Shown here in pieces: positions 1-39,053 of a stretch of DNA of 39,064 bases. The stretch comes from a virus: the IMG/VR virus record IMGVR_UViG_3300029951_000066; one strand, given 5' to 3'. The notes below the pieces were generated by a model. It made no database searches, was not told the DNA's origin, and saw nothing but the letters and a program-made list of their open reading frames with translations. The translations under genes and the position numbers were made by a program. Position 1 is the first letter of the stretch. Each line of letters begins with the position of its first letter.

Positions 1-127
1 GTCAGCACCTCGTGACGCTGGTCGCCAAAGATCACGCTCGGGTGCTGGCGGTCAAGCCACATCATTCGTCCACCGCAGCACGGGTCGAGAATTGTCTTTT
101 CGGCTACGTCGCTCACGCTCCGCTCCC
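1..127. repeat. Terminal redundancy, copy 1 (identical to 38938-39064); consistent with a circular assembly overlap or a permuted/terminally redundant genome
   Basis: Direct comparison of the first 127 nt with the last 127 nt shows an exact match. Confidence 0.9.
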
Positions 128-1957
128 AGTAGCGCTAGCAGCAGCGATGCGGTCGATGCGCTCAATTTCGGCAAGGATCAATGCCCCGGCTTTAATAAGC
201 ATCCAACGCAGCGTGTCAGGTTTCCACCACTCGCGGCTCCAAGGCCACCATGGAGGAGGCTCGCAAAATGCACGCATAGGATCATTGGGCCATCCGATCG
301 CTATGTTTCCTGCATTCAGTGCATATGCTGCGGCAGCTTTCGCCATCTCCCCATTTGTATGCTCGTCATCGTGCTCGACCGTCCAACCTTCAACATTCAC
401 CTGACGAACTCGCTCGGCCAGCACATCGCGTACCGCATCACTCAGCCCGCTCGGCGCTGCTGTCTGATCGCCCATGCCAGCCGCGTAAGCATCCCGCGCT
501 ATCTGCTTGGGACTCGCGCCGTGCGCACGGTAGTCCGAATACCAACCTTCGAACCTGGAATCGCCAACGTGCCGAGTATCAGTGCTCGGCGCTGCTTGCG
601 GCTGGGCGGCGAAATAGAGAGGGAGTGTCGGGTAATGCTTCGGACGATCACCGACATCGAGCAATGGCACCGTGTTGGCCCACAACGGCCCTTGCGTCGG
701 ATGAATCGGAACATGCGCCACCACTCCCCCAGCCTCACCGATAGGGGCGCCGTGGGTTTTAAGGTGATTCTCAAATCTTGCGAATGCCTGTTGTGACTCA
801 GCACCGCGCCGGGATAATCTCCAGTTTCGAGCAAGGCTTTTTGCCGTTTCAATCCAATCTTCGCTTAAGTTTTTTTCGTGCCAAAACAGGTGCCCCGCAT
901 CAAATGACAGCGAAGAAATTTCCTTTGCCGGCATCCCGGAAAAGTCTTGTGCGGCATACCACTTCGAAAACTGCACGAGTGCGCCTCCTTCGGGGCCTGC
1001 CGTTCCTACCGGCGCAGCCTCACCGCTATGGGGCACGGGGGCGCTAGCTTGCATCCGTTCTATCTGGAAGCGGATCTGACCCAGCACCGAAAAGAGAGAG
1101 TCAAGCAGTTCAGCATCGTCCGCTGGAATAGCGCTCTCTAAACCCAGCGTCTTACAGATGCCACGCAAACGGGTTGCAGCGTAATCGTCCGTGCTCGATG
1201 CTACTTGCGGTGCCTTGGCGATCAGCGCGTCTGCATAGCCCAAGTCATATCCGAAGCTCCATGCTTCATGCATTCCTGCTGGGCACGTCATAGCCCCGTT
1301 CGGGTCGAGGCAATACCCCTCTGGCCATTTGATCTGTTTCGAGTAGCTCGGCGCTGCCGCAGGGACTATCACAGGTCCGTCAAATATGCGGTCTAGAACC
1401 GCATCCAATTGCTTGACTTGGCCCGTCGTCATGGAAAGCCGATCAGCAATCTGCGCATTAAGCAGCGCCTTCAATGCCGGGTCGCGCTTCGTATCGCCGT
1501 TGTACATAATCGGTGGAATGCTCGCATCTACCGGCACAGCGACGGGCGCAGCAGGTGCTGTTCCCGTTCCTGAGCACGATTTACACAAGTCAGCAGGCGC
1601 TTCGTCTATCCCGGTCCAAATCGAACCGTAGCCATCACATGCTTTGCAGGAGACAGCGACGAGATTGTGTTTCGCAAGCCATACTGCCAAGCTTAGAAGT
1701 GTTCCCTCGAACACTTGCTTAGCGGTGTGATCGGCCGATATTTGACCTTGCTGGTACATTTCCCAGCAATGATCCAATACGTCTTGTGTCAACCGCACCT
1801 TAACTCCCTCGCTCTTGTGGGCGATAGCTGCTTGCCAGCCGAGCCAGCAGATTTGCGCTTCGGTCGATGGGTAGTCATCGACCATCAGTGGGCCGGTATA
1901 GTTGTCAGCCCAATATTTCTCAAACGCCTCTCGGCTATCGCTAAGTTCTTTGCTCAT
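113..1957 (-). CDS. Large multidomain hypothetical protein (about 614 aa from ATG at 1957); CxxC...CxxC zinc-ribbon-like segment, three internal F-x-K/G-W-Y repeats, C-terminal acidic EHDDEH..GE motif reminiscent of MazG/DUF550-like NTP pyrophosphohydrolases
   Basis: 638-aa ORF in track; internal ATG (MSKELSDS) preceded by AGGAA RBS; stop overlaps the methyltransferase start (GTGA) in the circular sequence; domain call from motifs only. Confidence 0.6.
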   Translation of the reverse strand: MSKELSDSREAFEKYWADNYTGPLMVDDYPSTEAQICWLGWQAAIAHKSEGVKVRLTQDVLDHCWEMYQQGQISADHTAKQVFEGTLLSLAVWLAKHNLVAVSCKACDGYGSIWTGIDEAPADLCKSCSGTGTAPAAPVAVPVDASIPPIMYNGDTKRDPALKALLNAQIADRLSMTTGQVKQLDAVLDRIFDGPVIVPAAAPSYSKQIKWPEGYCLDPNGAMTCPAGMHEAWSFGYDLGYADALIAKAPQVASSTDDYAATRLRGICKTLGLESAIPADDAELLDSLFSVLGQIRFQIERMQASAPVPHSGEAAPVGTAGPEGGALVQFSKWYAAQDFSGMPAKEISSLSFDAGHLFWHEKNLSEDWIETAKSLARNWRLSRRGAESQQAFARFENHLKTHGAPIGEAGGVVAHVPIHPTQGPLWANTVPLLDVGDRPKHYPTLPLYFAAQPQAAPSTDTRHVGDSRFEGWYSDYRAHGASPKQIARDAYAAGMGDQTAAPSGLSDAVRDVLAERVRQVNVEGWTVEHDDEHTNGEMAKAAAAYALNAGNIAIGWPNDPMRAFCEPPPWWPWSREWWKPDTLRWMLIKAGALILAEIERIDRIAAASATGSGA

Positions 1958-3268: not shown

Positions 3269-4033
3269 TTATGCGCCTAGCAATTCTTCGCGGCGCTGGT
3301 GGTAACGCTCGGTCGCTTCTTCGCGGTCGGCTTCGGGCAATTCGCTGATCAGGGTGGCGTCGGCGTCGAGTGCGTCGATGTCCATGCGGCTGTTCATGGT
3401 GTCGATGAGGTGCTTGGTACCGACGCTGAGTGCGGCAGGTTGGGGCTCGACGGGCGGTTGGGCGCTCGTCACACCGCCGCGCAACTCTTTCGCGCGTTCA
3501 GCATAAGCATCACTAGCTGCCTGCACGTCGCTCTCGGAGGTGAGCTTCATTGCCATCACCTTCGCCGCGTTCATCGCGTTGCGACCAGTAGCGGCCTTGA
3601 TTGCCTTGAGCACGTCATCGAGCGTTACGACCGTGAGTGGCAATATCGTATGCGTCGCTTTCTTGCCCTTCGTAGAATTCAGCGACAGCGATATTTCGCG
3701 CTCGATATTGCTCAAATGGCTGATGCGAATTCCACCCACGACCATCCCGCCGAACTTCACAGCATGATCGTTGTAAAGCGTCATGGACTTGCCGATCCAC
3801 TCGCGCCCGTCCTCACCCCACGCGAAAATCAGCAACTTGCGCATGGTCTTTCCAGGCTTGAACGGACGCCCCTGATCATCCTTGTAGTGCAGGATCACGG
3901 GCTGTTCATCATTGCCCATGCGCACGTCTGTAACGGTGATCGTCATATCGCCGTCAAGCAGTTGATCGGCGTTTAGTTGATCCGACTTCGGTACGATCGT
4001 ACTGCGAAGATTTGTGATATCAGACGTAGCCAA
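3269..4033 (-). CDS. Hypothetical protein (about 254 aa), probable TTG start; possible recombination partner of the adjacent nuclease (position only)
   Basis: ORF; AGGAGG six nt upstream of the TTG at 4033; overlaps the nuclease stop. Confidence 0.5.
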   Translation of the reverse strand: MATSDITNLRSTIVPKSDQLNADQLLDGDMTITVTDVRMGNDEQPVILHYKDDQGRPFKPGKTMRKLLIFAWGEDGREWIGKSMTLYNDHAVKFGGMVVGGIRISHLSNIEREISLSLNSTKGKKATHTILPLTVVTLDDVLKAIKAATGRNAMNAAKVMAMKLTSESDVQAASDAYAERAKELRGGVTSAQPPVEPQPAALSVGTKHLIDTMNSRMDIDALDADATLISELPEADREEATERYHQRREELLGA

Positions 4034-4931
4034 TTTCAACCTCCTGAGATTTGAATGCGTACGGCGGCAGGTCTATCGTGGTGGTGCTGTCCGCATAGCC
4101 AGGCCATACATTAGTGCGCAGGCATTCCTCGTAGATGTCCAACAGGCGGTGGACTTCGAGAAATCCTTCCTCGCGGCTCTCATTGCCTAGTTCATACGAT
4201 GCCGCGGCATATGGCCATTCGGACTCGACGGCGATAAAAATGAATTTCTCGACAGAAACATTTGCCGCTACACCATAGCCGCCAGAGTAAAAGGCATCCT
4301 GCCGGTGATAGTTCTTGCGTGCTGCGACTCTCGCAAATTCTGCTTTCGATGCGTCGCCACAGGTTTTCACATCGAGCAGCACGACTGAGCTTTTGCTGAG
4401 CGGACGCACGAAGTCAGGACGGCACCTGCATTTCACGTTGGTGATTGAATCGGTCCAGTAGCCCGACACCTCGGCGCGACCGCGCGACAGAAACTCACGA
4501 ATCTCCGGCAAAGCGCGCACGCTCTCAGCCTGCCGCATCGCCACTTCGTACTGACCGAGCGCAATCGGCAACTTCTGTTGGTTCTCAGTGGCCCACGCAG
4601 ACCACCATTCCATAGCCGCGATACTGTCATCGGACGGCTTCTTTGCATTCCACTGGGCTTCGGTGGGCTTGCGTGGCGCATTCTTCGGCGGTACTGCGTA
4701 CCGCTTGCCAAACTCTTCCGGCTCAAGAATCGCGCAGTGCGCAAGGTGGCCCTCAAGTTGCCCGGGCTTAGCGACACGAGCGGGCGCATCGGGCGACTGC
4801 CACGCATGGAAGATTGCTGGCGCCTTGTCGATCAGGTCGAGGCCTGTCTTCGAGATGCTGTCGCGATCGGCATGGTATTTCTCGATGGAGAGGTCGTAGA
4901 CGACCCTACCGGGGAACATGGAGTCATTCAT
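4020..4931 (-). CDS. PD-(D/E)XK family nuclease (phage recombination exonuclease-like)
   Basis: 303-aa ORF; RPDF...VVLLDVKT (D...D/E-x-K) and downstream Q/Y motifs typical of the PD-(D/E)XK fold; ATGA overlap with the upstream gene. Confidence 0.6.
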   Translation of the reverse strand: MNDSMFPGRVVYDLSIEKYHADRDSISKTGLDLIDKAPAIFHAWQSPDAPARVAKPGQLEGHLAHCAILEPEEFGKRYAVPPKNAPRKPTEAQWNAKKPSDDSIAAMEWWSAWATENQQKLPIALGQYEVAMRQAESVRALPEIREFLSRGRAEVSGYWTDSITNVKCRCRPDFVRPLSKSSVVLLDVKTCGDASKAEFARVAARKNYHRQDAFYSGGYGVAANVSVEKFIFIAVESEWPYAAASYELGNESREEGFLEVHRLLDIYEECLRTNVWPGYADSTTTIDLPPYAFKSQEVEIGYV

Positions 4932-5982: not shown

Positions 5983-6648
5983 TCATGCGCGGAGGCTTGG
6001 AGGGTTTTTACTGTAGGCCCCTGCGGCGGCCCATGCGGCGGCCCCTGCGGCGGCCCGTGCGGCGGCCCGTGCGGCGGCCCCTGCGGCGGCCCATGCGGCG
6101 GCCCCTGCGGCGGCCCATGCGGCGGCCCATGCGGCGGCCCCTGCGGCGGCCCATGCGGCGGCCCGTGCGGCGGCCCCTGCGGCGGCCCCTGCGGCGGCCC
6201 ATGCGTTTGCGGCTTCGGTTTTTGCCTTTTCAAGTGCTGGCATCGCAAGACGCAAGTCTTGCTCGCACGTTAAGGGTGGCAGCGCTTTCAGCGCATTAGC
6301 ATGGGGCATGAGTGCCGGCGTTAAAGTGAGCCAGGCAGCGGTATGCACGCGTACCAACCAGTCCATCGCCATCCAAGAACGCTTGCGGGAGAGTTCGGGA
6401 CCCTTGTTCGTGCCAACCAGGCGCACGATGTACTGCTTGAGCTGCTCGCGCTCTTCGTCGCAGTGCATGCCGTCGTTCCACGAGATGCCGAAAGAACGAA
6501 GCACCGGATCGACGCATTCCGGCGTGTCGCCAAACGGTTCGTTAGCGAACATGCTCACGACTTCGAGCAGGCAGTGACCATCGTCGGGCGAGCCGTGACC
6601 GCCATGATTCAGGGCGATTGCATCGAGCATTTCCAGTGTCAGTTTCAT
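5983..6648 (-). CDS. Hypothetical protein (221 aa): unique N-terminal domain of about 145 aa followed by about 16 tandem AAA[W/G/R] tetrapeptide repeats
   Basis: ORF with strong GGAGAGGAAG RBS at its ATG (6648); C-terminal third is encoded by a 12-bp tandem DNA repeat. Confidence 0.55.
   Translation of the reverse strand: MKLTLEMLDAIALNHGGHGSPDDGHCLLEVVSMFANEPFGDTPECVDPVLRSFGISWNDGMHCDEEREQLKQYIVRLVGTNKGPELSRKRSWMAMDWLVRVHTAAWLTLTPALMPHANALKALPPLTCEQDLRLAMPALEKAKTEAANAWAAAGAAAGAAARAAAWAAAGAAAWAAAWAAAGAAAWAAAGAAARAAARAAAGAAAWAAAGAYSKNPPSLRA
6018..6205. repeat. Tandem array of about 15.7 copies of a 12-bp unit (cccNtgcggcgg), with only the 4th base varying (a/c/g)
   Basis: Direct reading of the sequence; unit boundaries checked by position. 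Confidence 0.9.
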
Positions 6649-6665: not shown

Positions 6666-6803
6666 TTAGAAATTGAGCCAGCGCACCACATACCGCACGT
6701 ATCCGATTGCTTGTTCCAGCCGATCAGCCAAAGTGTGGGCGTCGTCAGGCGTATCAAAGCCGCCTTCGTCAGCACCGGTTCGGATATCGATTACGTGGTA
6801 CAT
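6666..6803 (-). CDS. Possible small ORF (45 aa) between the repressor and the repeat-protein gene
   Basis: Manual translation; GAGG five nt upstream of the ATG; below the ORF-track size cut-off. Confidence 0.3.
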   Translation of the reverse strand: MYHVIDIRTGADEGGFDTPDDAHTLADRLEQAIGYVRYVVRWLNF

Positions 6804-6842
6804 GACGGCCTCGCGGTTGTTCGTGGTGCTGCGTTGGAATCA

Positions 6843-6871
6843 ACTATAATTCAACGTATGCATTTTGCCAA
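6843..6871 (-). promoter_or_regulatory. Putative sigma70-type leftward promoter (TTGGCA-17 nt-TATAGT on the minus strand) just downstream of the repressor gene
   Basis: -35/-10 hexamers with 17-nt spacer in an AT-rich intergenic stretch. Confidence 0.4.
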
Positions 6872-6894
6872 TGATTTTTGAATAAATATTTGCG

Positions 6895-7188
6895 TCATGG
6901 CAATAGCGGTATTGTCCTTTTCCTCCGCTTGCGGCCTCGGACTATGGAGAACTTGACAATCGATGTGCGGTTGTCGTCGCCATTTCCGAAGTGTGCGACG
7001 AGTTCTTCTATAGACAGATCAAGCACTCGGGCTATCTGTTGAGCCTCGCCGAGCCTGACTTCTCGCTTGCCGCTGAGAGTGAGGGACATGCTTGACGGAT
7101 TCATATGGATCGCGTCCGCCAGTTCCTTCTGAGACATCTTGCGGGTCTTGAGCAATGCGCGGAACCATTTCAGGTCAATGTGTCGCAT
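6895..7188 (-). CDS. XRE-family HTH transcriptional repressor (CI-like)
   Basis: HTH motif SQKELADAIHMNPSSMSLTLSGKR; start at internal ATG (MRHIDLK) with GGAG RBS; divergent from a cro-like gene. Confidence 0.8.
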   Translation of the reverse strand: MRHIDLKWFRALLKTRKMSQKELADAIHMNPSSMSLTLSGKREVRLGEAQQIARVLDLSIEELVAHFGNGDDNRTSIVKFSIVRGRKRRKRTIPLLP

Positions 7189-7246
7189 ATTGGATACTCC
7201 AGTGGGGTAATGACAACTTGACCACCGAAGTATAGGAAAGATTCCC

Positions 7247-7275
7247 TTGAGGTGTTCTTGGTGATACGCTAATAT
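7247..7275 (+). promoter_or_regulatory. Putative sigma70-type rightward promoter (TTGAGG-17 nt-TAATAT) for the cro-like gene
   Basis: -35/-10 hexamers with 17-nt spacer; AGAGGA RBS and ATG at 7300 follow. Confidence 0.5.
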
Positions 7276-7299
7276 CAACGAAACGGAAAGAGGACTGCT

Positions 7300-7530
7300 A
7301 TGACCCCCGCTGAGATTGTCATCAAAGAATTCAATGGAATCGCGCCACTCGCTAGAGCTCTGGGTATAAGCTCAGCAACGGTTTGCCGGTGGCGCAGGCC
7401 TCGCCCGAAAGATCCGCAAGGAGGGCAAGTGCCGGGCAAGCACCATCGTCGCATCATCGAAATTGCGAAAGATCGCAACTTACCGATTGTCTTAAAAGAC
7501 CTCTGGTATGGCCGAGAAGAGCAGGAATAG
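7300..7530 (+). CDS. Cro-like HTH DNA-binding protein
   Basis: 76-aa ORF; motif GIAPLARALGISSATVCRWR resembles Cro/YdaS-type HTH; divergent from the repressor. Confidence 0.7.
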   Translation: MTPAEIVIKEFNGIAPLARALGISSATVCRWRRPRPKDPQGGQVPGKHHRRIIEIAKDRNLPIVLKDLWYGREEQE

Positions 7531-7536
7531 AGCATC

Positions 7537-8352
7537 ATGGCGTGCGCTGAGAAGAACAAGGCCGACATATGGATGCCGATTTATATCGGTAACTATTTGG
7601 CGGACACAACTCGCTTGACCACCGAACAACATGGGGCATATTTTCTGCTCATGATGGACTATTGGCGCTCTGGTCCGCCGCCCGACGATGATGAAATTCT
7701 GCAAAACGTCACGCGTTTATCTGCATTTCTTTGGAAGAAAACGCGGCCTGTTCTAGAGAAATTATTTTATGTCCATGATGGTGCATGGCATCACAAGATA
7801 ATTGATGAGGAAATCGCTGCTGCCCTTGAGGGAAAAGGGGCAGCGAGCGAAAAGGCACGGAAGGCAGCGGAAGCGAGATGGGGAAAAAAGGATGCTCCGA
7901 GCATTGCTCAAGTAGATGCCCCAGAGGTGCTTGAGGAATGCCCTTTACCATTACCATTACCGTTAACACCTAAAACCTTAGCAACAGGCGGAAAAAGTAC
8001 GCATAGCGGTATACCTCGCGCGCAACCTGCCGAATTGTCTGCTGCAATGCGTCGATACAGCATCGCAGCGCAACCCGCAGATCCCCGAATCATCGCAGCG
8101 GCTGATGCCGGTGTTTCCGTCGCAACGGTCGAAGCCGCATGTGCGGAAGCCAAAGCCGCTAAGCCAGGTCAGCGCATAGCGCCGGCGTACGTCCTTCGAA
8201 TCGCCGAGCGATGGACCACCGAAGCAGCTGCGCCACAGGCCCGCGCATCACCCTCTAAGCCTTTGAACGTGCATGACGATCGCAGACGCGCCTACGAAAT
8301 TCTCACCGGAAACACGCCTCATGAACCTGCCAGCGACATCATCGACATCTAA
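7537..8352 (+). CDS. DUF1376-like protein, putative replication initiation protein (lambda O analogue by position)
   Basis: N-terminal WMPIYIGNYLADTTRLTTEQHGAYFLLMMDYW matches the DUF1376 signature; followed by a P-like gene. Confidence 0.6.
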   Translation: MACAEKNKADIWMPIYIGNYLADTTRLTTEQHGAYFLLMMDYWRSGPPPDDDEILQNVTRLSAFLWKKTRPVLEKLFYVHDGAWHHKIIDEEIAAALEGKGAASEKARKAAEARWGKKDAPSIAQVDAPEVLEECPLPLPLPLTPKTLATGGKSTHSGIPRAQPAELSAAMRRYSIAAQPADPRIIAAADAGVSVATVEAACAEAKAAKPGQRIAPAYVLRIAERWTTEAAAPQARASPSKPLNVHDDRRRAYEILTGNTPHEPASDIIDI

Positions 8353-10505: not shown

Positions 10506-10661
10506 ATGCCAGCAGCTAAACAGGGCGAGAAGCTTTCCGACTTCCTCTCGCGGTTTGTGTCATCGAAACGTGAGGATCGCAAGTACTCGAACGTCAAGCA
10601 GCGCCTTGCTTTGGGCTACTCGGAAGCCAGAGAGCAGGCCAAGAAAGGAGTTAGGTCATGA
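10506..10661 (+). CDS. Possible small protein (51 aa)
   Basis: Manual translation with GGAGAG RBS; stop overlaps the HNH start (ATGA). Confidence 0.35.
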   Translation: MPAAKQGEKLSDFLSRFVSSKREDRKYSNVKQRLALGYSEAREQAKKGVRS

Positions 10662-11152
10662 GACGAATTGCGATCGCTAGGTTACATTTTTTGTTGCGCC
10701 TCGATGAAGCGACCGGGTTCCTGTGCTGGCGAGGGGCTAGCTTAGGGCATCACGCCGACGATCGCGCCGGAAGCCTGAAGAGCGATGGGTATCGCCGGGT
10801 CTACATCGATGGTTCGCGCATCTATGAGCACCGAATCACGTTCGCGATGACAAATGGTCGTTGGCCAGATTTGCACGTTGACCATGCCAACGGAGTACGT
10901 GATGACAATCGTCCCTGCAATCTTCGCGAGGCAACAAGGTCCCAAAACAATGCAAATAGTAAGATTTCTTTGCGTAACACCAGTGGGCTCAAGGGTGTCG
11001 GGTTCCACAAGCAAATAGGTAGATTCAGGGCCGACATACGGATTGAGGGGAGCCTCAAGTACCTCGGCCTATTCGATAGCGCAGAAGAGGCGCATGCCGC
11101 CTATATGCGAGCAGCGCAGCAATTCCATGGCCAATTCGCGAGGGCAGCATGA
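10658..11152 (+). CDS. HNH homing endonuclease with AP2-type DNA-binding domain
   Basis: Motifs HVDHANGVRDDNRPCNLREATRSQN (HNH) and SGLKGVGFHK...YLGLFDSAEEAHAAY (AP2-like); AAAGGAG RBS. Confidence 0.8.
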   Translation: MRRIAIARLHFLLRLDEATGFLCWRGASLGHHADDRAGSLKSDGYRRVYIDGSRIYEHRITFAMTNGRWPDLHVDHANGVRDDNRPCNLREATRSQNNANSKISLRNTSGLKGVGFHKQIGRFRADIRIEGSLKYLGLFDSAEEAHAAYMRAAQQFHGQFARAA

Positions 11153-12116: not shown

Positions 12117-12394
12117 TGACTATCGATTATGAGCGTGGAACTGGGCGCACGACAGAGCAAATGAAGGCTGCGCCGCGCGGTGCCGTATATGTTTCTCCGC
12201 ATCCTTTCGCCACCGACTATGTCCGCAAGCTCGCTGCGAAGATTTTGCGGGAAGACCTAAGGATCGTAGAGCCTTCGTGGCTAGACCATGGATGGCACGG
12301 CAAGATTTTGGAGGGCATCGTCGTGGACCATGCATGCCATCTGGATGACCATCATCGACAACTTCTTTTGAATGCCGAAACAAGGATTCGATAA
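12116..12394 (+). CDS. Hypothetical protein (92 aa)
   Basis: ORF with TGATG overlap and GGAGA RBS. Confidence 0.45.
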   Translation: MTIDYERGTGRTTEQMKAAPRGAVYVSPHPFATDYVRKLAAKILREDLRIVEPSWLDHGWHGKILEGIVVDHACHLDDHHRQLLLNAETRIR

Positions 12395-12828
12395 TGGGCG
12401 TCAACCTCAAGACCAATGGCGCTGGCGGGGAGTTGTCTTACGAGACGAAGACCTACGTTGCGCCCGACGAGAAGATCCAGCCGCTTCACGACTACATCGT
12501 GGTCGAGCCGCTGCCGATAGAGCATTCGAAGATTCTGCTTGTTGTCGAAGAGATCAAGCCGGTTCGCGGGATCGTGAAGGCTGTTGGGCCTGGCCACTTT
12601 CCATTGCGATATGACCACCCGGACAAGCACCGTCGCACGAAGATGTGGCGCAGCAAGACATTTTTGCCAACCCAGGTGAAGGTGGGCGATATCGTTGAGC
12701 TCGGCTCGGTGCAGTTGGAAGGCCGGTATGTTGGCTACAGCTTTCAGCAAATTTATTGGGGAAACACGATGCATATCATGTGCCGTGAAGCCGATGTGAG
12801 CGGGATAGTCGAACAGGAGGCAGCATGA
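12394..12828 (+). CDS. GroES-like co-chaperonin (Cpn10 family)
   Basis: Motifs PLHDYIVVEP, GIVKAVGPG, VKVGDIVEL and C-terminal ADVSGIVEQ parallel E. coli GroES (PLHDRVIV, GEVLAVGNG, VKVGDIVIF, SDILAIVEA). Confidence 0.65.
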   Translation: MGVNLKTNGAGGELSYETKTYVAPDEKIQPLHDYIVVEPLPIEHSKILLVVEEIKPVRGIVKAVGPGHFPLRYDHPDKHRRTKMWRSKTFLPTQVKVGDIVELGSVQLEGRYVGYSFQQIYWGNTMHIMCREADVSGIVEQEAA

Positions 12829-20894: not shown

Positions 20895-20925
20895 TCGAGT
20901 CTCCTCGGGTGGCCTCGGGGCCTTG

Positions 20926-20955
20926 GGGCCGCCTTAGGGCGGCTCTTTTTCTTTC
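20926..20955 (+). terminator. Putative rho-independent terminator
   Basis: GC stem gccgcc/ggcggc with ttag loop followed by tctttttctttc. Confidence 0.45.
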
Positions 20956-36152: not shown

Positions 36153-36626
36153 ATGGGTGCCGTAACCTTCCAATTCGTCGAGGGGAGGGGCCTCAGCTCC
36201 TCTCTAATTGAATGGTTTGATCACGACCGTTACTCTCATGTCGATCTCGTCTTGCGAGACGGCACGTTGCTAGGCGCCCGCGACGATATGATTCTAGGCA
36301 TACCGGCAGGTGTGCAGATTCGCCCGTCCAGTTATGTGGACGGGGAATCAGTTCTCAGGGTGTCGGTGCCGTGCACAGACGAGCAGGAAGCGGCGTTCTA
36401 CGCCTATGCTCAAGAACAGGTGGGGAAGCCATATGACCAAGAAGCCATTGCCGCCTTTGTGGTGGGTCGGAATTGGCGCGATCCTAACGACTGGTACTGC
36501 TCTGAGCTGGGCGCTGCTTGCACTGAGAAAAGCGGGATTGTTCCGCCGTTGATTGCGCCTTGCAACAAGATAGCGCCTGGAGATTTGGCGCTGCTTTTGT
36601 CTGCTCTGGTTGAGATTCAGCCGTGA
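36153..36626 (+). CDS. Putative permuted papain-fold cysteine peptidase (YiiX/C92-like), possible second cell-wall hydrolase
   Basis: His-then-Cys order (YSHVDLVL ... WYCSELGAAC) reminiscent of the permuted NlpC/P60-like amidase family. Confidence 0.45.
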   Translation: MGAVTFQFVEGRGLSSSLIEWFDHDRYSHVDLVLRDGTLLGARDDMILGIPAGVQIRPSSYVDGESVLRVSVPCTDEQEAAFYAYAQEQVGKPYDQEAIAAFVVGRNWRDPNDWYCSELGAACTEKSGIVPPLIAPCNKIAPGDLALLLSALVEIQP

Positions 36627-37108
36627 TTAGCGAACTCTCCGTGAAGTCTTTCCCTGGCCTCATGAAGAGCGTTGCCAGCCTCTTCCTTCGATATGAAATA
36701 TCCCACGCATTTTTGCTTCCCATTGGATTGAAGTCGAGCTACCCATCTCGCACTGTATTTATGCCAAAACACTCCTTTTATTCCAGAAGTGTTATCAGTT
36801 CTAATCGACGCGTTTTGGGCGTTCTGCGAGTGTGTAGCATGCCTCAGATTAAAGAAGCTATCGTCCGATCTGCAGGTATTGCGATGGTCTATTTCATGTT
36901 CAGGGAAGACGCCGGTCATATATAACCAGGCGAGCCTGTTGGCCTTGTAGTTTTTGTTATCGACCATGATCTTTCTGTAGCCATCCGGCTCTATTGATCC
37001 TGCTAGATCGCCAGGCTTCAGACGATTAGAGGAAGGCTTGACCCAAGTGAATATCCCTGTTTCGGGATCATAGTGAAGGACTTCTTTTAGGCGTTCTTGA
37101 GTAAGCAT
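36617..37108 (-). CDS. HNH homing endonuclease with AP2-type DNA-binding domain (paralogue of the 10658 gene)
   Basis: Motifs ERLKEVLHYDPETGIFTW, EIDHRNTCRSDDSFFNLRHATHSQN, SGIKGVFWHK...VGYFISKEEAGNA; GGAG RBS at ATG 37108. Confidence 0.8.
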   Translation of the reverse strand: MLTQERLKEVLHYDPETGIFTWVKPSSNRLKPGDLAGSIEPDGYRKIMVDNKNYKANRLAWLYMTGVFPEHEIDHRNTCRSDDSFFNLRHATHSQNAQNASIRTDNTSGIKGVFWHKYSARWVARLQSNGKQKCVGYFISKEEAGNALHEARERLHGEFANHG

Positions 37109-37432: not shown

Positions 37433-37713
37433 AGGAGTCCCTTTTCAGACATCTTGTGGCAGCATTGCCAACCGGCCATCCAGATTAGCCGGCTTAAAAT
37501 ACCTTGCTTCCATGCCGCATTTCTTCGGCTCGAGTCGCTGCTGATCACATGTTTCATATAAGCCACCACGCTTAGTTCCATCGACAGGATTATAGGTCAC
37601 AGGGGTAGGATTTTTCATGCATTGCGCAGCGACGAAAAATGCGAAACCTGGGAGTAGAATGCCGCCATCGCCTGATGATGACGCTTTGTAGTAAATTCAA
37701 TCTTTACAGAATT

Positions 37714-38205: not shown

Positions 38206-38532
38206 TCAAGATCCTTTGGTACGGGCAGCGTCGATAGCTTCGTCTACGGTTTCCGGCTTGAACTTAACGCCATGGAATGCCTTTCCCACTGAAAGGTAGA
38301 ATGCGCATATCCCCGGCTCGCTCTTATCGCGCAGCCACCTATACCGCTCTGCATCAACTGCTAGCGCCTCGACCGCCGAGCGGAGTTTCGCTATTGCTTC
38401 TCGGTGCTTTTTGGAATCAGCCCCAGGAACGTAGCCCATCAGAGGAATTGCCAGGGTCTCGCATTCAAAGGCCAAAAGCATAACCTGCTCGACCGTTGGC
38501 GCTACTGTGGGGTTGGGTGTTGGGGTGGTCAT
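38206..38532 (-). CDS. Hypothetical protein (108 aa)
   Basis: ORF; ATGA overlap with the methyltransferase stop. Confidence 0.5.
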   Translation of the reverse strand: MTTPTPNPTVAPTVEQVMLLAFECETLAIPLMGYVPGADSKKHREAIAKLRSAVEALAVDAERYRWLRDKSEPGICAFYLSVGKAFHGVKFKPETVDEAIDAARTKGS

Positions 38533-39053
38533 GATTTATCTCCATGCGCAGCGGTCTTCATAAAGACGAGCCAGTGTGTGAGCCCTTTGCGGCCGCTTAG
38601 ATGGCCAAAGAGCGGCTTGACCTCAGCCAACGCCAAAACCTCACTCACCTTGATCTGCGTTTCATTCCACTTGAAGATCAAAACGCCATCCACGGAGAGC
38701 ACGCGAAAGCACTCTGCGAAGCCTCTGCGTAGGTCGTCGCGCCAGTCGGGACCGAGTTGGCCATACTTAGCTGCCAACCAACTCTTGGCTCCAGCACGCA
38801 CCAAATGCGGCGGATCGAACGAAACCAGTTTGAAAGCGCCGTCCGAATACGGCAAAGCACGGAAATCCAGCATCACGTCAGGCTCAATGCGGAGCGTGCG
38901 CGTGCCGCTGTCGTTACCATGCGAGCGGTCAGTAACGGTCAGCACCTCGTGACGCTGGTCGCCAAAGATCACGCTCGGGTGCTGGCGGTCAAGCCACATC
39001 ATTCGTCCACCGCAGCACGGGTCGAGAATTGTCTTTTCGGCTACGTCGCTCAC
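38529..39053 (-). CDS. Small SAM-dependent DNA methyltransferase-like protein (amino-methyltransferase motifs I and IV), orphan; GTG start lies in the terminal repeat
   Basis: Motif I-like ILDPCCGG and motif IV-like DPPH (DPPY variant); GGAG RBS; no adjacent restriction endonuclease gene. Confidence 0.55.
   Translation of the reverse strand: MSDVAEKTILDPCCGGRMMWLDRQHPSVIFGDQRHEVLTVTDRSHGNDSGTRTLRIEPDVMLDFRALPYSDGAFKLVSFDPPHLVRAGAKSWLAAKYGQLGPDWRDDLRRGFAECFRVLSVDGVLIFKWNETQIKVSEVLALAEVKPLFGHLSGRKGLTHWLVFMKTAAHGDKS

Follow-up and report, generated by a model that had tools for sequence, protein, structure and literature searches.

The window, by which is meant the whole 39,064-nucleotide stretch of DNA analysed here, is the genome of a new lambdoid, P22-like phage minus the int module, of a kind already known. 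Its early-control region is, on balance, probably that of an integrase-less member of a temperate lineage, which would grow lytically and whose repressor would afford repression and immunity of no more than a transient, abortive or pseudolysogenic kind. The layout of the switch, with a small repressor gene and a divergent cro-like gene, is observed directly, as are the closed circle and the conserved leftward promoter. Repressor binding at both early promoters, a maintenance promoter, the function of the Cro-like protein and the lifestyle are what we infer from this arrangement.

The genome and its circularity

The window corresponds to JGI contig Ga0302310_10000449, has a GC content of 56%, and ends in an exact terminal direct repeat of 127 bp; it is therefore a circle of 38,937 bp. 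The circle was closed independently in the JGI assemblies, where it occurs twice as a 39,064-bp contig, and by MEGAHIT, where a contig of 39,078 bp is equal to 38,937 bp plus the k of 141. The phage originates from peat metagenomes, and its host is probably a Paraburkholderia or a similar peat-soil bacterium. An identical repressor is present in 88 blocks of the collection, most of them on contigs of 20-50 kb, with five blocks of 50-200 kb and none larger. This abundance, together with the diversification of the integrase-less lineage, would be somewhat unexpected if the repressor had no stable role, and counts against the reading given above.

The window is a P22-like podophage with headful packaging, encoding a P22-type portal (Pfam P22_portal, 1.5e-129), a P22-type coat protein (P22_CoatProtein, 5.8e-21) and an Sf6-type small terminase (Sf6_terminase, 9.2e-25). 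Further Pfam matches identify a large terminase, an internal protein with an SLT domain, and a pectate-lyase-like tail spike. A megablast search with 25 kb of the genome against cultured phages gave no match, and neither a tRNA nor an Rfam family was found in the window. No family could be assigned to approximately half of the ORFs, among them those for proteins of 614, 254, 221 and 213 aa.

The left operon begins with a 45-aa gene (6666..6803, minus strand) that was called in all related contigs and has no Pfam or PHROG match. It includes a PD-(D/E)XK exonuclease (4020..4931, minus strand; DUF3799, 5.3e-22; phrog_412 exonuclease VIII, 1.8e-73), which is adjoined by the 254-aa gene (3269-4039), a possible annealing partner. 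Further along are a homing-type HNH-AP2 endonuclease in the distal part of the operon (36617..37108, minus strand; HNH_3, 3.7e-8, plus AP2; phrog_99, 2.2e-68) and a 174-aa DNA methyltransferase (38529..39053, minus strand; phrog_954, 1.5e-67). On the rightward side, the gene directly after cro encodes a DUF1376 replication or primosomal protein (7537..8352, plus strand; PF07120, 6.1e-17; PHROG primosomal-protein families), with no cII-like gene between the two.

The repressor, the Cro-like gene and the control region

The original prediction was of a lambda-like divergent switch, and the order of elements (leftward promoter, repressor, control region, cro, replication genes) does match that of lambda and P22. 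The repressor gene (6895..7188, minus strand) and the Cro-like gene (7300..7530, plus strand) flank a spacer of exactly the 111 bp that had been stated (7189..7299). The divergent repressor/cro layout, a lambdoid feature, is conserved in two related loci, with the spacer nearly identical in one (L060) and diverged in the other (L059).

The repressor had been called CI-like, a description that holds for its DNA-binding domain. The 97-aa protein belongs to the XRE family (PF01381, PF13443), with HTH matches above the gathering score (HTH_26, 2.2e-8, 34.6 bits against a cutoff of 22; HTH_3, 1.9e-7, 31.4 bits against a cutoff of 23) and matches to PHROG transcriptional-repressor families. The likeness to CI ends there, as Pfam detects HTH families only and neither an S24 peptidase nor an oligomerisation domain. 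In the AF2 model, residues 1-68 form a five-helix bundle, and the tail of residues 69-96 (the last 29 residues) has a pLDDT below 50. Foldseek matches include C.BclI, HigA, SinR, the N-terminal domain of lambda cI, 434 Cro and P22 C2, the nearest folds being generic XRE proteins, among them restriction-modification controllers and antitoxins. A role as a restriction-modification controller would fit the top fold matches, but was rejected, since the gene adjoins neither methyltransferase. The family is small, with only three clusters in 5.8 billion proteins. All three homologues known, which align at 100%, 88% and 66% identity, have the same recognition helix.

In the case of the Cro-like gene, the ORF and its position are as predicted, whereas similarity to Cro proteins is found only below threshold, with all of the matches pointing one way. 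The 76-aa product, encoded by the first gene of the rightward operon, matches P22_Cro (PF14549) with E=0.026 and 14.7 bits, below the gathering cutoff of 30.2, and its top three PDB matches are all Cro proteins: 5w8y (XPH1, 0.074), 1rzs (P22 Cro, 0.2) and 3bd1 (Xfaso-1 Cro, 0.37). The carph-isopro domain of NCBIfam is matched at 2.8e-9, with 37 bits where the cutoff is 38. The single-sequence AF2 model, with a pLDDT of 53, is too poor to judge a Cro fold. The gene is conserved in both L060 and L059, and its ATG is preceded at 7-12 nt by an AGAGGA ribosome-binding site.

Early promoters lie on both sides of the repressor gene, another lambdoid feature, as judged by matches to consensus only. 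On the left side, the strong promoter that had been predicted just past the repressor gene, TTGGCA-17-TATAGT (6843..6871, minus strand), is a 10/12 match and one of only two sites in the whole genome that score 10/12 or better. Placed 23 bp beyond the stop codon of the repressor gene, it heads the operon that begins with the 45-aa ORF, and its hexamers are identical to those in the sibling L060. The rightward candidate, TTGAGG-17-TAATAT (7247..7275, plus strand), is present as predicted, but its description as a good promoter overstated its strength, as the match is 8/12 and falls under the threshold of the promoter scan. At the same position L060 has TTGAGA-17-TAACAT, a 9/12 match. The weakness of this promoter by consensus is a point against the main reading. 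A possible weak promoter for maintenance of the repressor, AGAACA-18-TATACT (7229..7258, minus strand; 8/12), was missed by the scan and is suggested by its sequence; it would be arranged back-to-back with, and overlap, the rightward promoter.

The recurrence of ATCAAC(G) beside the -10 elements of both promoters had been proposed to mark an operator half-site. The positions are correct: ATCAAC and TCAACG motifs abut the leftward -10 element (6839..6856), with ATCAAC at 6839 and TTCAACG at 6850, and ATCAAC occurs again at 7274, where ATCAACG (7274-7280) abuts the rightward -10 element. The operator role is not borne out by motif counts, as neither motif is enriched in the genome (ATCAAC, 28 against 19.7 expected; TCAACG, 26 against 23.3 expected), and an unbiased motif search over the three homologous control regions gave no significant result. 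Because the recognition helix is invariant across the homologues, the diverged control region of L059 could serve as a test of the motif. An exact ATCAACG is found in that intergenic region, with a probability of approximately 0.01 by chance (our own estimate), and would constitute the only independent, and marginal, support for an operator. In addition, a 27-nt direct repeat (6818..6844, plus strand) is identical at 20 of 27 positions with 7253-7279; 44 of 1000 shuffled sequences gave a repeat as good, and L060 retains the leftward-promoter copy only poorly. As no repeated operator emerges statistically, action of the repressor at both promoters is suggested by position. An inverted repeat at the start of the repressor gene (7173-7184 / 7212-7223) was also considered as a hairpin, and was set aside as it folds no better than shuffled sequences (z = 0.37).

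Integration and maintenance functions

Profile searches covered all ORFs of the early and structural regions with Pfam (E<=0.05), the early region with PHROGs (E<=0.01), and the large unassigned proteins with NCBIfam. In agreement with the claim that the circle holds no integrase, recombinase, transposase, protelomerase or partition gene, these scans of the ORFs found no tyrosine or serine recombinase, excisionase, resolvase, DDE transposase, protelomerase, ParA, ParB or plasmid Rep. The genome has neither the int, xis and attP of a lambdoid immunity system nor the genes of a phage-plasmid or protelomerase phage. Integrase remnants were likewise not found, as tblastn with Int and Xis of phage PBR31 and a Paraburkholderia Int returned nothing in the window at E<=1. 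No tRNA-derived att core could be traced either. With regard to an XerCD route, no dif-like site is present at up to 8 mismatches in 28 to E. coli dif, a weak test given that the dif of the host may differ. Pfam and PHROG searches of the genome also found no antirepressor domain (ANT, KilA or Bro) and no cII-like gene.

The search for an integrated or plasmid-like copy that had been suggested with the original prediction turned up none among 185,579 species genomes, within the sensitivity of the search. In the 24 longest contigs of each look-up, no bacterial flank was found beside window-specific sequence, all of these contigs being continuous from phage to phage.

The sibling phage (L060/L061), whose repressor is 93% identical, has a left operon that is contiguous from the repressor to a convergent spanin and lysozyme, and precomputed Pfam and PHROG annotations of that operon include no integrase. 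As the sibling also lacks int, the integrase-less state is a property of the lineage rather than a single deletion.

A second phage that shares the methyltransferase gene

Several long contigs join the left operon of the window to an integrase-bearing arm, an observation that counts against the main reading. On four of them (L068, L050, L051 and L165), the window left operon and the methyltransferase gene are followed by a Gam-like gene, a C5-methylase, xis, int and the 3' half of a tRNA-His gene, with the excisionase (phrog_4764, 2.8e-10) and integrase (phrog_1, 3.3e-31) assigned by PHROG matches. A further contig of 101 kb (L055) shows the opposite arrangement, with the distal arm of the window and the methyltransferase gene connected to a foreign operon whose first gene encodes a 466-aa protein. 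All joins on the long contigs are at the methyltransferase gene, with breakpoints at approximately 38,524 and approximately 128-148 in circular coordinates. The segment, of about 0.6 kb, exceeds every assembly k in length and has the same sequence (100% identity) wherever it occurs.

The integrase arm most likely belongs to a second, co-occurring phage that integrates at tRNA-His and has only the methyltransferase gene in common with the window. This assignment is based on the observations that follow. First, the late arm of the second phage is foreign: the other arm of the tRNA-His attP is a late region with a patatin-like gene, an HNH gene, a Gp80-like fibre and a 611-aa fibre, and is unrelated to the late genes of the window. 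Second, an integrated contig of 62.85 kb, with dusA and the full tRNA-His gene, lacks the window's repressor, exonuclease and portal, and its terminal gene is similar to the foreign 466-aa gene. Third, on a short MEGAHIT contig (L161) the methyltransferase gene links the foreign operon to the int arm, and window sequence is absent. The attP form of the second phage (int, core, late arm) is seen on L068 and L147, the attL junction (dusA, complete tRNA-His, late arm) on L145, and an attR-like junction (int, core with the tRNA-His 3' fragment, a terminator and non-phage sequence) on L165. A protein search with a 343-aa ORF beyond attP gave no match. Help in trans from the second phage's integrase was considered and rejected, as the window and the tRNA-His attP core have not so much as a 12-mer in common.

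It is unlikely, but conceivable, that the phage is temperate as a population, with true recombinants joining the immunity region and left operon of the window to the Gam-like/C5-methylase/xis/int/attP arm, and with the window as the version of an integrating phage whose arm lacks int. The contigs that suggest this are L068 (52 kb), L050 (89.8 kb, and five similar ones), L051/L160 (41 kb) and L158/L165 (44 kb, from MEGAHIT), all of which are 100% identical to the window over the repressor and left operon before they continue into xis and int; L165 passes in addition through the tRNA-His 3' fragment into the terminator and non-phage sequence, as an attR would. However, the join is always at the identical node of about 0.6 kb, which exceeds any k, and the contigs consist of a tail plus exactly one window circle. 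For instance, every contig of more than 50 kb that carries the window phage is one full circle with a tail; the 52,064-bp and 89,853-bp contigs both stop at window coordinate 38,651, which is 38,524 + 127, the 101,250-bp contig stops at coordinate 1, and the 44,079-bp MEGAHIT contig is the sum of 38,937 bp, a 5,022-bp tail and a 120-bp overlap. The two distal arms could not coexist in one real genome. The foreign late region on the other side of attP, the integrated copy of that region free of window genes, and the parental adjacency of the second phage standing alone in L161 all argue in the same direction.

A related and very unlikely scenario is that the shared methyltransferase gene serves as the site at which the circle recombines homologously, in the manner of a Campbell-type event, into a resident tRNA-His prophage, where the circle's own repressor would keep it silent. 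The 0.6 kb of complete identity would provide the substrate, and the PD-(D/E)XK exonuclease with its adjacent partner gene, or host RecA, could help such recombination; both of the reciprocal junctions that a cointegrate would have are seen, one on L055 and the other on L165, L050 and L068. On the other hand, a single repeat common to a free circle and a separate prophage yields the same graph and the same loop contigs, and there are samples with the free circle only and samples with the second phage's own adjacency only (L161). The hybrid contigs could be real cointegrates or recombinants, or else paths that loop through the assembly graph; these contigs cannot distinguish the two cases because both produce the same graph.

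The converse idea, that the 39-kb circle is an artefact that has dropped an int segment between two methyltransferase copies, was rejected, as the 39,078-bp MEGAHIT contig is the circle plus k and comes from a sample that shows only the window-type arm, and as the sequence past attP is a late region, at least 24 kb long, of another phage.

Fate of the repressed genome

In the mechanism that we favour, the small XRE repressor would be transcribed leftward from the weak promoter inside the 111-bp spacer, and would silence the two promoters that flank its own gene. The leftward promoter (6871-6843) would drive an operon of roughly 9 kb, exonuclease and methyltransferase genes included, and the rightward promoter (7247-7275) would drive cro and the DUF1376 replication genes, followed farther downstream by the late genes. 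The Cro-like protein, as the first rightward product, may counteract synthesis of the repressor. As the replication genes lie behind a repressible promoter and integration and partition genes are lacking, a repressed genome would neither integrate nor be stably inherited, and would be diluted out by cell division.

Stable lysogeny could in principle be provided by a novel recombinase, or by episomal maintenance, encoded among the unassigned proteins (those of 614, 254, 221 and 213 aa, for example), an explanation to which we assign a low probability. Several large early proteins match neither Pfam nor NCBIfam and could hide a recombinase or partition function, which counts against the main reading. 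The C-terminal domain of the 614-aa protein occurs in nine PHROGs of unknown function, the sibling is also integrase-less, and the phage is found in many samples. Such a system would, however, have to escape recognition at lenient E-values, where the ORFs still give no signal of a P-loop partition ATPase, ParB, Rep, or a DDE, tyrosine or serine recombinase; moreover, among the species genomes searched there is no integrated or plasmid-like copy, and the single relative found in a chromosome differs in its immunity region.

That there is no lysis-lysogeny switch at all, and that the XRE and Cro-type regulators merely time early transcription in a strictly lytic cycle, is similarly improbable: the bare 97-aa HTH protein with its controller, antitoxin and generic XRE folds, the lack of recognisable cII-like, antirepressor, int or xis genes, and the finding that P22-like phages can be virulent despite a full set of lysogeny genes (PMC12111858) are in keeping with it, but it is temperate lambdoid phages, PBR31 for example, whose immunity region has the repressor gene between outward-facing early promoters and a divergent cro, and the structural relatives of the window are prophages.

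Implications

A repressor without an integrase is a known situation, to which the one-gene assembly link with an integrating phage adds interest. Genomes of this kind mislead lifestyle predictors that score the presence of a repressor as temperate, and the 41-101-kb contigs that seem to place the phage beside an integrase and bacterial DNA are easily misread as integration. If the joins were real cointegrates, they would document natural lysogeny by recombination into another prophage. The value of the window is as a clean, closed and abundant case (88 collection blocks), with an integrase-less sibling species and syntenic relatives that carry int-xis, that could be used to address the role of a repressor in an int-less lambdoid phage.

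Comparison with known systems

The immunity region resembles those of lambda and P22 (immC) in that the repressor gene lies between leftward and rightward early promoters, the divergent cro is the first rightward gene and is followed by replication genes, and a recombination exonuclease is encoded in the left operon. With P22 the window also shares the type of portal and coat protein, together with the Sf6-type small terminase. It differs from both phages in its 97-aa repressor without an S24 or oligomerisation domain, in having no cII-like gene, int, xis or attP, and in that tripartite operators are not demonstrable.

The structural relatives of the window are temperate, one being a Paraburkholderia prophage in the chromosome and the other a phage with int-xis. 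The latter, Xanthomonas phage PBR31 (MT119766), is the closest cultured phage by portal (37% identity), and its genes follow the window's order around the entire circle, from the c repressor through the cro-like, replication, GroES-like, terminase, portal, tail spike and lysis genes to a convergent left operon. Between the lysis cassette and the left operon, however, PBR31 has an integrase and excisionase, whereas the window has the HNH-AP2 endonuclease and small ORFs; the repressor of PBR31 is 225 aa in length compared with 97 aa. The question of lysogeny has a context: relatives with this architecture keep int-xis where the window has an HNH endonuclease. The prophage of Paraburkholderia sp. 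HD33-4 (NZ_JAJEJS010000002, locus L062) is of one structural lineage with the window, as judged by identity in the coat (86%), portal (76%) and large terminase (72%), and is chromosomally integrated in a 3.27-Mb contig. In its early region it has instead a 156-aa HTH repressor, a DnaB-type helicase and RusA. P0007, tried as a route along this prophage, led to an unrelated small integrative element.

Short, HTH-only repressors that lack a LexA-like domain and are non-autocleavable are represented by P2 C and the Gifsy and 186-type repressors, which belong to antirepressor-inactivated systems, and these phages encode integrases. The small HTH-only repressor of the window is alike, but neither an antirepressor domain nor an integrase was found in the window.

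The Cutibacterium acnes phages have no integrase, encode a repressor-like HTH protein, and maintain their genomes only as unstable episomes (PMC12426086). They differ from the window in that they are unrelated siphoviruses of a Gram-positive host with no divergent cro arrangement described. By analogy with these integrase-less phages, the repressed window genome may, at best, be carried abortively or pseudolysogenically, with immunity.

Two HNH-AP2 endonuclease genes

The window has two paralogous genes for HNH-AP2 homing-type endonucleases: one belongs to the right early operon (10658-11152), and the other lies at the left operon's distal end (36617-37108), the position occupied by int-xis in relatives. 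The latter gene and a 77-aa zinc-ribbon-like ORF lie directly downstream of a promoter-like site, ATGAAA-18-TATAAT (37589-37618, minus strand), that is found within the non-coding gap 37433-37713. Among promoter-like sites of the genome, it alone shares with the leftward early promoter a match at 10/12 positions, and its location just upstream suggests, from sequence, that the zinc-ribbon-like ORF and the HNH-AP2 gene may constitute a module with its own transcription.

A co-occurring phage that integrates at tRNA-His

A xis gene, a tyrosine integrase gene and an attP are carried by a second phage that co-occurs with the window phage, and whose late region includes a Gp80-like fibre gene and a patatin-like gene. 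The attP consists of the 3' half of tRNA-His, and the attP, attL and attR forms can all be found among public contigs, the attL form with dusA and a complete tRNA-His, and the attR form with a terminator and non-phage DNA. The segments with these features lie at 12645-14160 of L068 and 14996-15552 of L165, two contigs that join the left operon of the window to the arm with xis and int, and at 16305-16380 of L145, a contig with dusA and the other phage's late arm.

The 174-aa methyltransferase gene (window 38529-39053, extending in circular coordinates to about 148) acts as a recombination or assembly node and is 100% identical in metagenomes across at least three upstream and at least three downstream contexts; the contigs of 41-101 kb that carry it consist of a tail plus one phage circle.

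Left-operon proteins

The second left-operon protein (221 aa; 5983-6648, minus strand) has an Ala/Gly/Trp/Arg-rich repeat, the product of a 12-bp tandem array (unit GGCCCCTGCGGC, 15.8 copies, 6016-6205). This array looks hypervariable, as the gene encodes 221, 217, 194 or 181 aa in different contigs. The 614-aa protein (113-1957, minus strand) has no match in Pfam or NCBIfam; it carries DnaJ-like CxxCxGxG motifs close to the N-terminus and, at the other end, a C-terminal domain of ~110 aa for which nine PHROGs, all of unknown function, gave hits (best E, 1.5e-37).

Other features of the genome

Downstream of the coat and 135-aa genes is a terminator-like hairpin (20920-20946; 9 pairs, of which 7 are G-C, followed by a T-run), stronger than any other in the genome. 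Amid the genes for tail and internal proteins, the segment 25080-26122 encodes a cupin resembling Asp/Asn beta-hydroxylases (9.5e-17), together with a GNAT-like acetyltransferase. Upstream of the terminase genes, 12394-12828 encodes a protein with a weak match to GroES (Cpn10, E=0.009; NCBIfam GroES, about 1e-3), and Xanthomonas phage PBR31, the closest cultured phage by portal, has an annotated GroES co-chaperonin in the equivalent relative place.
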